Assembly: GCA_044226625.1 (NCBI GenBank)
Contig: JBGAGQ010000088.1
Location: forward strand, 1-20,005
Reading direction: 5' to 3'
DNA length: 20,005 nt
DNA from: Thermoanaerobaculia bacterium
Lineage (GTDB): Bacteria > Acidobacteriota > Thermoanaerobaculia > Multivoradales > UBA5704
The translations under genes were made by a program, and so were the position numbers. Of the stretch, positions 1 through 2,965 are shown piece after piece. How positions within the stretch are numbered: position 1 is the first letter of the stretch; every line of letters begins with the position of its first letter. The notes below the pieces were generated by a model. That model ran no database searches and was not told the DNA's origin. It saw only the letters and a list, made by a program, of their open reading frames with translations.

Positions 1-194
1 CTGATGCAGAGCGTCTCCGAGACGATGCACCAGGGCGGGCAGGTGTCGCACGACTGGCAGGAATTCCAGCAGGTCTCCCAGTCGGTACACCGGTCGCACG
101 TGTCCAGCGAATAGGCGCCCCGGGCGGCGCGGAGGCCGGTGGCCTCCAGGCGGGCGAGGGTCTCCTTGGCGAGGGTGAGCTTCTTCTTTTTCAT
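1..194 (-). CDS. Putative RiPP precursor peptide (LxLxKx5L leader, Cys/Ser/Thr/Trp-rich core); 3' end runs off the window
   Basis: Hand translation from ATG at 194: MKKKKLTLAKETLARLEATGLRAARGAYSLDTCDRCTDWETCWNSCQSCDTCPPWCIVSETLCI..., 64 full codons with no stop in the window. Strong RBS GGAGAGGAG 8 nt upstream and GC-rich third codon positions. The leader matches LxLxKx5L and ends in a double-glycine-like GA. Not in the supplied ORF track. Confidence 0.88.
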   Translation of the reverse strand, partial: MKKKKLTLAKETLARLEATGLRAARGAYSLDTCDRCTDWETCWNSCQSCDTCPPWCIVSETLCI

Positions 195-202
195 CGGCGA
201 CG

Positions 203-211
203 CTCCTCTCC
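203..211 (-). promoter_or_regulatory. Shine-Dalgarno site of the precursor peptide gene
   Basis: Plus-strand ctcctctcc reads GGAGAGGAG on the minus strand, 8 nt before the ATG at 194. Confidence 0.8.
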
Positions 212-403
212 GTGGGATGGGATGGGTCCTTCCAAGAAGGGTGCTTCCCGGAAGAACGAGCGGGCCGGCGGCGAGGGGAGTGAGGGAGGCGCCGCCTTGA
301 GCCAGCGTAGCTTTCCACCAGCCGAGGGTCAGGCTTTCAATTGGCCGGCGTGCAGACCTTCATTTGGCAGCGTACCGAGCCTTCGGGAACGGCTGAACCG
401 CTC

Positions 404-2965
404 TCAACCTCTTGAAAACGCCGGCCCTGACGCACGGAAAGGTGCGACGAAGCGCTCTAGGAGGTCCGCCCGTTCGGCGAGGAGCCGAAGGGCTTGGGCG
501 TGCGGCGCGGCGCGGGCGACGGCGATTCGAGCGCGTTCGAGGCGTGCTCGCAACGCCTCTTTTGGAAGTCGCGGGTGGGGGAGGTGGCAGGGCACCCCCT
601 GGCCCAGGAGGATGGCGTCGATCCCCTCCGGGCCCCAGAGCGGATCGGGGTAATCGAAGCCGTCGCGGATCGGCGGATCGTAAGAAAGCGGGCCGCGCTG
701 GCGGAACGCTTCGAGCAGGTCGGCGCGGTGGGAGACGTCGACCTCCGCCCGGGCCGCGCGCCAGAAGGGGGCGTCGAGGCGGCGGTTGAAGCGGTAGTGG
801 ATCGCGAGGAACCAGGCGAGATAGTCCCACCAGGCGCCGACCTTTCGGTCGTAGAGAGGCGCGAGGCTCCGGTCGCCGTGGCGGAGTGGAAACACTTGGC
901 AGAGTAGCCCGATCTGGCGGATTAGCAGGTGGAGCGCGGTCGATTCGAGCGGCTCGACGAAGCCGTAGGCATTCCCCAGCGCCATCGTGTTGCCGCGCCA
1001 GAAATGTTCGTGCCGCCCGGTGCGGAAACGCACCTCGCGCGCGGCTCCCATGCCGGGGTTCGCGCGGCGCATCTCGGCCTCGGCCTCCTCGAAGCTCTGG
1101 AACGCCGAGGCGAAGACGTAGCCGCGATGGTCGGCCTCGCCCTGCGGCGTGCTCCAACACCAGCCGGCGGACATCGTCTCCGCCGTCGTGTACGGTCGGA
1201 TGTGGCCGCCGTGGGGCACCGGGGCGACGACCGCGCGATCGGTCCAGAGGCTCCGGTCGAAGCTCACCCAAGGCGAGCCGAGCGCCCGTTCGATCAACAG
1301 CGAGCGAAAGCCCGTCGCGTCGACGTAGAGATCGAAGCCGAACCGCCGACCGTCGAGGGCGACCAGCGCCTCCACTTCGCGGCCACCCGAGCCGTCGTCT
1401 CGCGTTTCGACCTCTTCGAGTGTCGCCTCGATCCGCTCGATCCCGGCCTCCGCCGCGCGTCGCGCGAGATAGGCGACGAAGCGCTCGTTGTCCAGGTGAT
1501 AGGCGACCGCCGTGCCGAGCCGCGCGGCCCAGGAGTCCTCGCCGTTCGGATCAGGACCCAGACGGTAGAGACCCACCGCGTCGGCGGCCATCAGCAGCGA
1601 GGGGAGAGAGCAGCTCTTGAGGCTGGAAGTTCCTGCGTCGGATTCGCTTCCCGCGGCGCCATAGACCGCGGGCTCCAGGAGATGAAGCGGGCCGAACGGA
1701 TAGTGGAAATCGCCGACCTCCGGCTCGCCCCAAAGGAAGCGGATGCCGAGCTTGAGCGTCGGCCGGACCTCGGCGAACAGTTGGTGCACGTCGAGCCCGA
1801 GGTCGGCGTGGAGGAACTGCGGCATGAGAGGCGTGGTCGCCTCGCCGACGCCGATGACGGGGTGGTTCGGCGATTCGATCAGGGTTACGCGCAGGTCCGG
1901 CACCTTCCGCCGCAGCGCGAGCGCGGTGAGGTATCCCGCCGTGCCGCCCCCGACAATTCCGACCGAACGGACCAGGTCCCCGCGTTCGATCGAAGAGATC
2001 GCGGCGCGGGGTAGGGATTCTTCGCGCTCGACGATCGAGAGCAGAGCCGGGGAGGTGAGATCGGTCTCCGGGGGAGCGGTGATTTGTGAGCAGAGGGGGC
2101 ACTCGGGGTCCCGTGCGAGCGGGATACGGCGAGCTTCGCCCGAAGAGAAGGATTCGGTCGGAAGCAGGAGAAAAGCATCGACGAGAGTGGGCTCTCCGCC
2201 ATGAGGCCCGAGGATTCGGAGCGTCTCGGCGATGACCGCCCGCTCCGCCCAAGCGCGCGCGGTGGGATCGACCGTATGGACCTCGAAGTTCGAGATGGCC
2301 GAAAGCCTCGCCGAGGGATCGAGACCGAGGAACCGCGTTGCCGCGAGTTGGGCGCAGGTGATGCACGGACTGAGGCCGGGGATCACCGTCGGGCCGACGC
2401 GAAGCCCATCCGGGTCGGCGGTGATGAAGAAGGCCGGGAGGTTGAGGCTCAGACAGGCGGATTGATCGGCGAAAAGATCGCGGTACGAGACCCCCTCGGC
2501 GGCACAGACGACGAGCGACGCGGTTTGGAGGAAGGCGTCGGAAGGATCGAGCCGGTCGAGACGCCGGATCGGTGTGGGGGGAGCAGCCCGCCGAAGCGAC
2601 TCCTCCAGTGCGCGTGCGAACGTGGAACTTCCCAGCACCAGGACCGACCGGTGCTCGGAATTGGGTGTTGGGTTCGCTGGCAGCTCGGCTCGGCGGACCA
2701 TTTCGCCGAAAAGCGCCCGGAGCAAGCCCCGAGCCTCCCGCTCGTCGAACGGAGGATCGAGCGCAGCGGCTGCGGCGACGACCTCCGCAGCCGTTCGGAC
2801 ACCGTCGACCAGGCCGAGTAGGCGATCGAGGTTGTGAAGCTCGACTCCGGCGAGGAGGCTAGCCCCGCGGCGGTGGCGGACCAGGAGCCGGCCGTCGGGA
2901 AGGGCTACCGCTTGAGCCCGCGGGTCTCTTTCGAGGACGTCGCCTGGCTGTAGGGGTCGAGTCAT
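404..2965 (-). CDS. Fusion protein: RRE-like domain + E1/ThiF-like TOMM leader-binding domain + flavin-dependent tryptophan halogenase (853 aa)
   Basis: The C-terminal ~520 aa carry halogenase motifs: GIVGGGTAG (FAD binding), GVGEAT, TLKLGIRF (catalytic Lys position), DATGFRSLL, GWCWSTP (WxWxIP variant) and GFVEPLEST. Residues ~105-295 contain RVGPTVIPGLSPCITC and RDPECPLC, typical of E1-like TOMM proteins. Residues ~1-95 have a strand-strand-strand/helix pattern with LLGLVDGVRTAAEV, typical of RRE domains. Confidence 0.9.
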   Translation of the reverse strand: MTRPLQPGDVLERDPRAQAVALPDGRLLVRHRRGASLLAGVELHNLDRLLGLVDGVRTAAEVVAAAAALDPPFDEREARGLLRALFGEMVRRAELPANPTPNSEHRSVLVLGSSTFARALEESLRRAAPPTPIRRLDRLDPSDAFLQTASLVVCAAEGVSYRDLFADQSACLSLNLPAFFITADPDGLRVGPTVIPGLSPCITCAQLAATRFLGLDPSARLSAISNFEVHTVDPTARAWAERAVIAETLRILGPHGGEPTLVDAFLLLPTESFSSGEARRIPLARDPECPLCSQITAPPETDLTSPALLSIVEREESLPRAAISSIERGDLVRSVGIVGGGTAGYLTALALRRKVPDLRVTLIESPNHPVIGVGEATTPLMPQFLHADLGLDVHQLFAEVRPTLKLGIRFLWGEPEVGDFHYPFGPLHLLEPAVYGAAGSESDAGTSSLKSCSLPSLLMAADAVGLYRLGPDPNGEDSWAARLGTAVAYHLDNERFVAYLARRAAEAGIERIEATLEEVETRDDGSGGREVEALVALDGRRFGFDLYVDATGFRSLLIERALGSPWVSFDRSLWTDRAVVAPVPHGGHIRPYTTAETMSAGWCWSTPQGEADHRGYVFASAFQSFEEAEAEMRRANPGMGAAREVRFRTGRHEHFWRGNTMALGNAYGFVEPLESTALHLLIRQIGLLCQVFPLRHGDRSLAPLYDRKVGAWWDYLAWFLAIHYRFNRRLDAPFWRAARAEVDVSHRADLLEAFRQRGPLSYDPPIRDGFDYPDPLWGPEGIDAILLGQGVPCHLPHPRLPKEALRARLERARIAVARAAPHAQALRLLAERADLLERFVAPFRASGPAFSRG

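Follow-up and report, generated by a model that had tools for sequence, protein, structure and literature searches.

The 20,005-nucleotide (nt) stretch analysed here (the window) is the entire contig JBGAGQ010000088.1 (C96 in our numbering) of a Thermoanaerobaculia bacterium in the phylum Acidobacteriota. On its minus strand it carries a gene for an 853-amino-acid (aa) fusion protein and, beside it, an open reading frame (ORF) for a Cys- and Trp-bearing peptide that resembles the precursors of peptides that are made by ribosomes and modified after translation (RiPPs). The fusion joins a RiPP recognition element (RRE)-like domain and an E1-like domain to a flavin-dependent tryptophan halogenase of the MibH type. 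We consider it probable, though far from certain, that the protein is a leader-guided peptidyl-tryptophan halogenase, in which the RRE would bind the leader of the precursor and the core would be halogenated at W39 and/or W55. The fusion gene occupies positions 404–2965 (ATG start at 2965, stop codon 404–406). The peptide ORF starts with an ATG at 194–192, 209 nt past the fusion stop, and stays open to base 3 (64 codons). The original prediction, made from the letters of this stretch, had placed a same-strand peptide gene about 210 nt downstream of the fusion; its coordinates are correct, the strand being minus. The source genome bin measures 6.6 Mb in 133 contigs and is 97.9% complete, with 5.5% contamination. 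The fusion pairs a familiar chemistry with a familiar recognition module, an uncharacterized combination in which nothing is categorically new.

Domains of the fusion protein

Residues 330–853 (positions 407–1978, minus strand) form the flavin-dependent tryptophan halogenase domain. PF04820 (Trp_halogenase) matches residues 335–798 over profile positions 2–451 of 458, with 353.5 bits against a cut-off of 21 (E = 2.4e-105). When a profile of 22 homologues, reaching down to 43% identity (alignment A1), was searched against the PDB, MibH (entry 5UAO) scored 599 bits (E = 9e-179), the runner-up entry 298 bits, and PyrH, RebH, Thal and PrnA about 250–280 bits. Consistent with this, a Foldseek search with an AlphaFold2 model of the fusion (mean predicted local distance difference test score, pLDDT, 80.4) returned MibH with E = 1.6e-49, a template-modelling (TM) score of 0.88 and 43–44% identity, as against about 1e-34 for PyrH and PrnA. 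The kinship to MibH is thus borne out, and residues 330–853 are nearer to MibH than to the free-tryptophan halogenases. The flavin-binding motif (GxGxxG), which reads GGGTAGY at 339–345, is invariant in all 22 sequences, as are K405 (in P-T-x-K-L-G-I-R-F) and E674 (in E-P-L-E-S-T); the two align with the same residues of MibH and would correspond to the catalytic Lys/Glu pair of PrnA (K79/E346). In the segment W602-C-W604-S-T-P607 the W, C, W and P residues are likewise kept in 22/22, with Thr at the place of the Ile in the WxWxIP motif; MibH reads WCWTIP there.

MibH, the Trp-5 chlorinase of NAI-107 (microbisporicin) and a lanthipeptide tryptophan 5-halogenase, is the closest solved relative of this part of the fusion. 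The two share the flavin adenine dinucleotide motif, the Lys of KLGIRF, the WCW motif and PLES, and both are tied to a class-I-lanthipeptide-type precursor. They differ in that MibH (541 aa in the PDB entry) aligns to the halogenase part only (profile positions 304–811 of 825), the fusion having about 330 extra N-terminal residues, and in that neither LanB nor LanC stands beside the fusion.

Low-confidence linkers at residues 94–105 (disordered) and 319–329 part the three domains in the AlphaFold2 models. Residues 1–93 (2687–2965, minus strand) make up an RRE-like (PqqD-like) domain that is predicted to bind leaders, as indicated by its model, by its alignment to domain 1 of TruD and LynD, and by PF05402, which is precomputed on 2 of the 120 listed homologues. 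The model of the N-terminal part (pLDDT 86.6; about 90 in the RRE region) has strands at 10–13, 18–21, 27–31 and 34–38, a helix at 43–50, a short strand at 54–58 and helices at 59–66 and 75–85. This order is near, and not identical to, the strict strand-strand-strand, helix-helix-helix order by which the available text of a 2025 survey defines the RRE (PMC12710340). Two residues of the domain, R30 and G34, are invariant in the 22 sequences of A1. Residues 106–300 (2066–2650, minus strand) form an E1-like (ThiF/MoeB-like) domain with a CxxC...CxxC arrangement and a degenerate glycine loop, assigned from the TruD alignment, from Foldseek and from a sub-cut-off match to TIGR03882 that is considered below.

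A profile of 17 N-terminal regions (alignment A5) retrieved TruD (E = 2.1e-10) and LynD (5.5e-6), with an alignment to their domain 1 that runs from profile position 48, in the RRE helices, through both Cys pairs. Foldseek with the N-terminal model likewise ranked TruD first (E = 3.2e-12), followed by LynD, McbB, MccB and UBA5-type E1 enzymes; TruD, LynD, McbB and MccB, the best structural matches, are all RiPP leader-binding E1-like modules. The TM score of these matches is only about 0.4, with a root-mean-square deviation of 11 Å, which we attribute to what appears in the model as a differing mutual orientation of the two N-terminal domains. C201, C204, C289 and C292, aligned with both Cys pairs of TruD, are invariant in 22/22 (A1) and 17/17 (A5) sequences. 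The glycine-rich nucleotide loop that active E1 enzymes carry lacks conservation here: the stretch at 114–119 reads G-S-S-T-F-A, of which only G114 reaches 90%. The same loop is presumably missing from the modules of non-adenylating cyclodehydratases. Because the loop is lost, the four-Cys site is kept and TruD and LynD are kin, the module is read, from sequence features, as a non-adenylating leader-binding unit of the cyclodehydratase kind. One homologue cluster, P0035, carries the NCBI name 'TOMM precursor leader peptide-binding protein' (TOMM, thiazole/oxazole-modified microcin). The architecture that had been proposed, RRE, E1-like domain and Trp halogenase in one chain, is supported by PF04820, the TruD and LynD profile matches, Foldseek and the modelled domain boundaries.

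The module, including CxxC...CxxC, is shared with TruD and LynD (cyanobactin heterocyclases), McbB and MccB. In TruD, LynD and McbB it is fused to, or partners, a YcaO cyclodehydratase, and in the fusion it is joined to a halogenase; in MccB the module is itself an active adenylating enzyme, whereas the glycine-rich loop of the fusion is not conserved. A library of 1.84 billion proteins holds 255 cluster representatives of module relatives at E ≤ 1e-10 and 50 at ≤ 1e-30. Ten module relatives of 599–778 aa were examined, of which seven are module–YcaO fusions, themselves uncharacterized and the nearest non-halogenase relatives of the module; the other three proved to be halogenase fusions, shorter or truncated. 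The simplest history suggested by these sequences is that a MibH-type halogenase was swapped in for YcaO behind the same leader-binding module. The source genome contains no paralogue of the N-terminal module, which is present as a single copy.

The precursor peptide and its pairing with the fusion

The peptide is preceded by a ribosome-binding site, GGAGAGGAG (203–211, minus strand), 8 nt 5′ of its ATG and kept as GGA(A/G)AGGA at 4/4 orthologous loci. The leader comprises residues 1–27 (114–194, minus strand), carries the motif L6-x-L8-x-K10-x5-L16 (LxLxKx5L), read directly from the sequence, and ends in ...RGA. Its border with the core is placed provisionally at a Gly-Ala position in common with the GG/GA motifs of the paralogues described below. 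Alignments and NCBIfam model NF038153 (lant_leader_L1a, 'class I lanthipeptide' leader) agree with this assignment: the model covers residues 1–26 with 25.1 bits (cut-off 22), and the orthologue at locus L019 scores 20.3 bits, slightly under the cut-off. The visible core, residues 28–64 (3–113, minus strand), holds 8 Cys and 9 Ser/Thr; Cys stands at 33, 36, 42, 46, 49, 52, 56 and 63 and Trp at 39, 43 and 55. The eight Cys, three Trp and LxLxKx5L leader of the original prediction are therefore exact for the visible 64 residues, and its leader–core peptide passes a dedicated leader model.

Judged from its pattern of conservation, the peptide is a real, selected gene and not a chance ORF. Complete orthologues are 72–75 aa long. 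Among six distinct sequences aligned, all eight visible Cys, W39 and W55 are invariant (6/6) and W43 is present in 4/6, which weakens W43 as one of the proposed target sites; three of the five complete sequences have a C-terminal Trp. A DNA alignment of four orthologous loci shows a sharp boundary, with a poorly conserved spacer followed by the kept ribosome-binding site and then by coding differences enriched in synonymous changes, and the ratio of nonsynonymous to synonymous differences (pN/pS) is 0.25–0.46 in all six pairs of the four orthologues. A collection of 5.8 billion proteins contains only four clusters of the window peptide. In a public run, X1, which contains 94% of the sampled words of window positions 1–3000 and may be the source sample, a second contig over positions 33–192 differs at 12 bases, with 8 of the 11 affected codons changed synonymously and L13V, T19S and E40Q making up the rest. 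Another strain's version of the peptide gene is thus also present in that run. None of the public runs listed for this stretch was an RNA run.

Because the window is a whole contig and the ORF reaches base 3 without a stop codon, the peptide gene is truncated by the contig end. The original prediction had pointed to the sequence left of position 1, and part of it could be supplied. An X1 contig reaches 96 letters past place 2, so that the peptide gene continues beyond the window, and a 30-letter consensus of this extension, translated by hand in the peptide frame, reads T-A-C-E-S-V-C-P-D-C followed by a codon starting with T, in agreement with the ...C-E-S-V-C-P-D-C-W ends of three orthologues. 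The last base of the window contig is taken as an assembly-end error because the X1 contig running past it disagrees. The genome's own assembly supplied nothing further, as the missing C terminus was not found on any of its contig ends; an orthologue of the S9 peptidase that is syntenic in relatives lies on contig C23, 2.6 kb from the end of that contig. A promoter and terminator scan of positions 1–3800 gave no promoter-like site and four terminator-like sites against 2.5 expected, none of them between fusion and peptide, and the 221-nt spacer RNA folds no better than its shuffles (z = -0.16).

Homologues of the fusion are numerous. Of 8,000 candidates scored, 476 proteins reach E ≤ 0.001; 120 were listed, and 110 of these align over at least 95% of the fusion, at 42–100% identity. 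The names, where a source gives them, are 'tryptophan halogenase' or 'TOMM precursor leader peptide-binding protein' from Thermoanaerobaculia or Acidobacteriota. Species-representative genomes hold 318 relatives, from which we kept 80 loci: the match begins at or before residue 50 in 36, at 51–160 in 18, and covers the halogenase part only in 26. In three of the five closest relatives (L016, L017 and L019; four of six genomes with the window counted) the peptide is found beside the fusion, which upholds the pairing of the two genes among close relatives. It starts 197 nt after the fusion in L016, about 225 nt after it in L019 and 2.5 kb after it in L017, where a gene for an AAA_14/DUF4143 ATPase (L017:8575–10803) and one more ORF are inserted between the two; metagenome contig L095 repeats this arrangement, with the peptide 2.5 kb from the fusion. 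In L015 a small ORF matching the L017 insertion lies at the same place (about 8541–10090), with no peptide.

More distant members of the family, in a Nostoc/Polyangia branch at 36–42% identity, have conserved neighbours of their own: a split LanB (Lant_dehydr_N and Lant_dehydr_C on separate proteins), YcaO, a TfuA-domain protein, a metallo-beta-lactamase-fold protein and a JmjC protein. Fifteen of these distant loci encode a long-leader precursor whose sole Trp is its last residue (...MCCW in 14, ...MCPW in 1; for example L053:12062–12427). Of three such precursors compared with a Nif11-like leader model, one passes, one falls under the cut-off and one gives no match. When small ORFs were clustered across loci, shadow ORFs from closely related Nostoc loci dominated the outcome, and only the Nif11-like precursor emerged. 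Since these neighbourhoods combine LanB, YcaO and a Trp-ending precursor, we place the whole family in RiPP clusters whose substrates carry Trp. The ...MCCW ends closely parallel the LCCCW core of SrpE, which SrpI brominates, as described in the available text of PMC10858898. The distant loci span L049–L089 (Nostoc, Polyangia and others), several of them from cultured Nostoc strains, and at least one Nostoc locus (L068; cluster L068:2058–8169) has a second, stand-alone halogenase. Downstream of an Acanthopleuribacteraceae fusion, L035:9058–9843 encodes two Cys-rich peptides with Gly-Gly leaders and cores without Trp, both with a weak, sub-cut-off match to the mersacidin/lichenicidin model; these peptides do not sit easily with halogenation of Trp there.

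Weighing the explanations

In the scheme that we infer for binding, substrate, halide, indole position, step order and ring formation, the precursor would be roughly 75 aa long, with a class-I-lanthipeptide-type leader and a core rich in Cys, Ser and Thr. The RRE would bind its LxLxKx5L leader, while the E1-like domain, catalytically degenerate and held by a four-Cys metal site, would complete the module. The tethered core could then reach the halogenase active site (K405, E674), where the invariant W39 and/or W55, and perhaps W43 or the C-terminal Trp too, would be chlorinated or brominated with reduced flavin (FADH2) from a reductase encoded elsewhere. Thioether rings, if any, removal of the leader at the Gly-Ala site and export would be provided in trans by the single LanB, the two LanC and the single C39-peptidase transporter of the genome.

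These trans partners lie on other contigs. The genome encodes one LanB (C93), two LanC (C4 and C114), one C39 peptidase (in a 789-aa frame on C93) and a single YcaO, which is on C5 and paired with TfuA; its flavin reductase genes are on C39 and C17 only. It also contains 49 complete Cys-rich ORFs with a KKLxLxRETLxxL-type leader, spread over many contigs (C4, C16, C84, C121 and C125 among them); in 16 of these ORFs the core contains Trp. Three of these precursors (C4:57634–58500) are directly followed by the C4 LanC and are the only such ORFs to directly precede a LanC. The scattered ORFs look like a precursor library served in trans. Two candidates were set aside: a 50th match to the leader pattern, 109 aa on C58, was spurious, and a six-residue core identity on C5, 7 kb from the YcaO gene, is due to chance and lies in the shadow frame of a longer ORF.

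Several results weigh against a leader-guided enzyme with a dedicated neighbour. Pairing with the window peptide is confined to a few close relatives: the peptide is found at only 3 of the 80 kept loci, and L015 (72% identity) and L018 (65%) have an apparently full-length fusion and no peptide orthologue, either at the locus or genome-wide. In a sample of 201 genomes from the order, the module occurs in 22 and the peptide (E ≤ 1e-8) in 3; both occur in 2 of the 22, and the third peptide genome gives a weak match and lacks the module. At thirteen further, more distant loci, over up to about 8 kb on each side where the contig allowed, no convincing precursor was seen, three candidates there being judged spurious by eye; these screens used hand-made patterns and composition filters, which can miss unfamiliar leaders or precursors. 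The expectation of the original prediction that homologous fusions would have neighbouring precursors therefore fails for most of the family (3/80 loci, 2/22 genomes). Among the window ORFs scanned there is no LanB, LanC, YcaO, flavin reductase or C39 protease, and the ORFs scanned in the syntenic L016, L017 and L019 include no LanB, LanC or YcaO. The 'polycyclic' product that had been envisaged is thus unsupported locally, though LanB, LanC and YcaO are present elsewhere in the genome. The TIGR03882 match (TOMM leader-binding/E1-like) covers residues 178–299 with 28.7 bits, under the cut-off of 36.9. Finally, because MibH acts solely on the cyclized core after leader removal (PMC10858898, PMC12615548) and ChlH needs no leader (PMC12518702), according to the available texts, kinship to MibH does not imply leader guidance.

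We weigh the lack of a neighbouring precursor at most fusions as evidence that the enzyme can act on peptides whose genes lie elsewhere, in keeping with how scattered the RiPP genes of these genomes are. Two related accounts build on this. It is possible, if doubtful, that single-copy leader-guided enzymes (the LanB, the two LanC, YcaO–TfuA, the C39 transporter and the halogenase) serve about 50 scattered, hypervariable LxLxKx5L precursors, halogenation being added to the Trp-bearing subset through a module borrowed from cyclodehydratases; such an arrangement would parallel the prochlorosin system, with class-I chemistry and several enzymes. Unlikely, and overlapping with the leader-guided enzyme that we favour, is that the fusion itself is a trans-acting, broad-specificity tailoring enzyme for all LxLxKx5L peptides of the genome, the adjacent peptide being one substrate or a recent, genus-specific arrival in place of a dedicated partner. 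The 49 scattered leader ORFs, 16 of them with a core Trp, would suit this account, as would the presence of only one fusion, one LanB, two LanC and one C39 peptidase in the source genome, the retention of the fusion without the peptide in L015 and L018 and in 20 of the 22 module-bearing genomes, and the 2–18 leader-like matches in each of the related genomes G001–G005. It sits less well with the position of the peptide, which, where present, adjoins the fusion or lies at most 2.5 kb away (window, L016, L019, L017/L095), with the invariance of two of its Trp residues, or with the low share of paralogues, one in three, whose core contains any Trp.

Another possibility is that the module still serves as a cyclodehydratase 'C protein' that recruits a stand-alone YcaO, in which case the core would receive thiazol(in)es or thioamides together with a halogen and would not be a lanthipeptide. 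The nearest non-halogenase relatives of the module are fused to YcaO (7/10), distant family members adjoin YcaO and TfuA genes, the source genome has one YcaO, and SrpI acts after YcaO-made thiazolines (available text of PMC10858898). We nevertheless hold this to be quite improbable, given that the only YcaO of the genome is on C5 and paired with TfuA, that the window and the syntenic loci have none, and that the leader fits a class I lanthipeptide model. Only a little less improbable is an enzyme that has nothing to do with the peptide and whose substrate is free tryptophan, some other small molecule or an unrelated protein, with the module a structural or regulatory relic and the adjacency a matter of genus synteny. 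Most homologues indeed have no neighbouring precursor. The S9 peptidase and the ATP-binding cassette (ABC) gene are syntenic in all close relatives, with or without the peptide, so that gene order in the genus is conserved regardless of function; the convergent S9 peptidase is kept in L015 and L018, only 74 nt from the fusion in the latter, and is therefore probably a mere syntenic neighbour. Three findings oppose this view: the halogenase domain is twice as close to MibH as to any free-tryptophan halogenase; around distant members, RiPP clusters with precursors that end in Trp are plainly recognizable; and the N-terminal module is conserved full-length, with its invariant residues, across 22 sequences to 43% identity, which argues for selection on the module. 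Cryptic halogenation that primes a Trp–Cys crosslink, Cys being next to or near each invariant Trp, is highly improbable at best.

Neighbouring genes, known systems and significance

Upstream of the fusion, at 4970–6814 on the minus strand, lies a gene for an ABC exporter (membrane and ATPase domains by Pfam) that lacks a C39 peptidase domain. An orthologous ABC gene stands upstream of the fusion in L015–L019, and on this synteny the protein is a candidate product exporter with a possible link to the peptide. The interval between exporter and fusion contains two small ORFs with no Pfam match, at 4024–4311 (minus strand, 95 aa) and 4700–4945 (minus strand, 81 aa), the second of which carries two CxxC pairs. 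A 21-bp tandem repeat of 3.6 copies occupies positions 3633–3708, 670–740 nt upstream of the fusion gene, and three 21-bp repeats sharing the core GTGTGATGCG lie upstream of the fusion in L019 (5625–5690); the unit has no further occurrence in the source genome at up to three mismatches, and it could be a regulatory array. Farther along the window are Zn-uptake genes, TspO, a protein kinase, a DinB-family gene and a BTAD/AAA regulator. The regulator (BTAD, AAA_16 and Trans_reg_C; 16468–18687, minus strand) and the kinase-domain protein (887 aa; 12049–14712, minus strand) are 9–14 kb from the fusion. A second Trp halogenase of the genome (C86:121113–122690, equivalent to L005:1489–3066) is a canonical 525-aa protein, 35% identical to the halogenase domain of the fusion, without the N-terminal module; it is placed divergently from a 438-aa ORF with a CxxC-rich stretch and probably belongs to a separate pathway.

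The original prediction knew of no characterized pathway with this architecture, and our full-text literature search is consistent with that: no RRE/E1-like–halogenase fusion was described in the papers found. Of the papers found on lanthipeptide precursors of Acidobacteria, none, as far as titles or the opening lines of abstracts tell, deals with a scattered precursor family of this kind. The main text of the 2025 RRE survey has the word 'halogenase' only in its reference list (PMC12710340, as available). In the available text of PMC7268733, the LxLxKx5L motif is ascribed to class I LanAs from Bacteroidetes, in which it is often accompanied by a terminal Gly-Gly and a C39 protease; 'halogenase' occurs zero times in that main text. 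Pinensin-related precursors of Bacteroidetes therefore share the leader motif of the window peptide; they differ in belonging to clusters with LanB (often split) and LanC, whereas the window precursor has an Acidobacteriota host and only a halogenase beside it.

In the available text of PMC12615548, the characterized RiPP tryptophan halogenases are MibH, SrpI, MppI and ChlH. SrpI, MppI and ChlH, set beside the fusion here by their descriptions, are like it of the flavin-dependent halogenase type, and all three modify peptidyl Trp. SrpI and MppI are leader-dependent (available texts of PMC10858898 and PMC12615548). SrpI, which brominates a C-terminal Trp after YcaO-made thiazolines, contains no RRE of its own and does not require one in trans (available text of PMC10858898), whereas the fusion has an RRE-like domain; MppI is found next to a class II LanM (available text of PMC11791876). 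The descriptions available for these three enzymes mention no E1-like domain, which the fusion has.

These same descriptions ascribe no recognizable leader-binding domain to MibH, SrpI, MppI or ChlH, and they state outright that SrpI lacks one; the use of MibH is limited because its substrate must first be fully mature and free of the leader. Where a halogenase brings its own RRE/E1-like module, it should be possible to program it with a short LxLxKx5L leader. If so, the enzyme would be an appealing means of placing chlorine or bromine at chosen sites in engineered peptides, and the halogen could then be used for cross-coupling. Members of the fusion family are many, counting the 318 relatives in species-representative genomes and the 255 module cluster representatives given above, and the family is open to experiment because it includes cultured Nostoc strains. 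The fusion presents the leader-binding module of cyclodehydratases as a portable unit, which evolution appears to have attached to an unrelated catalytic domain.

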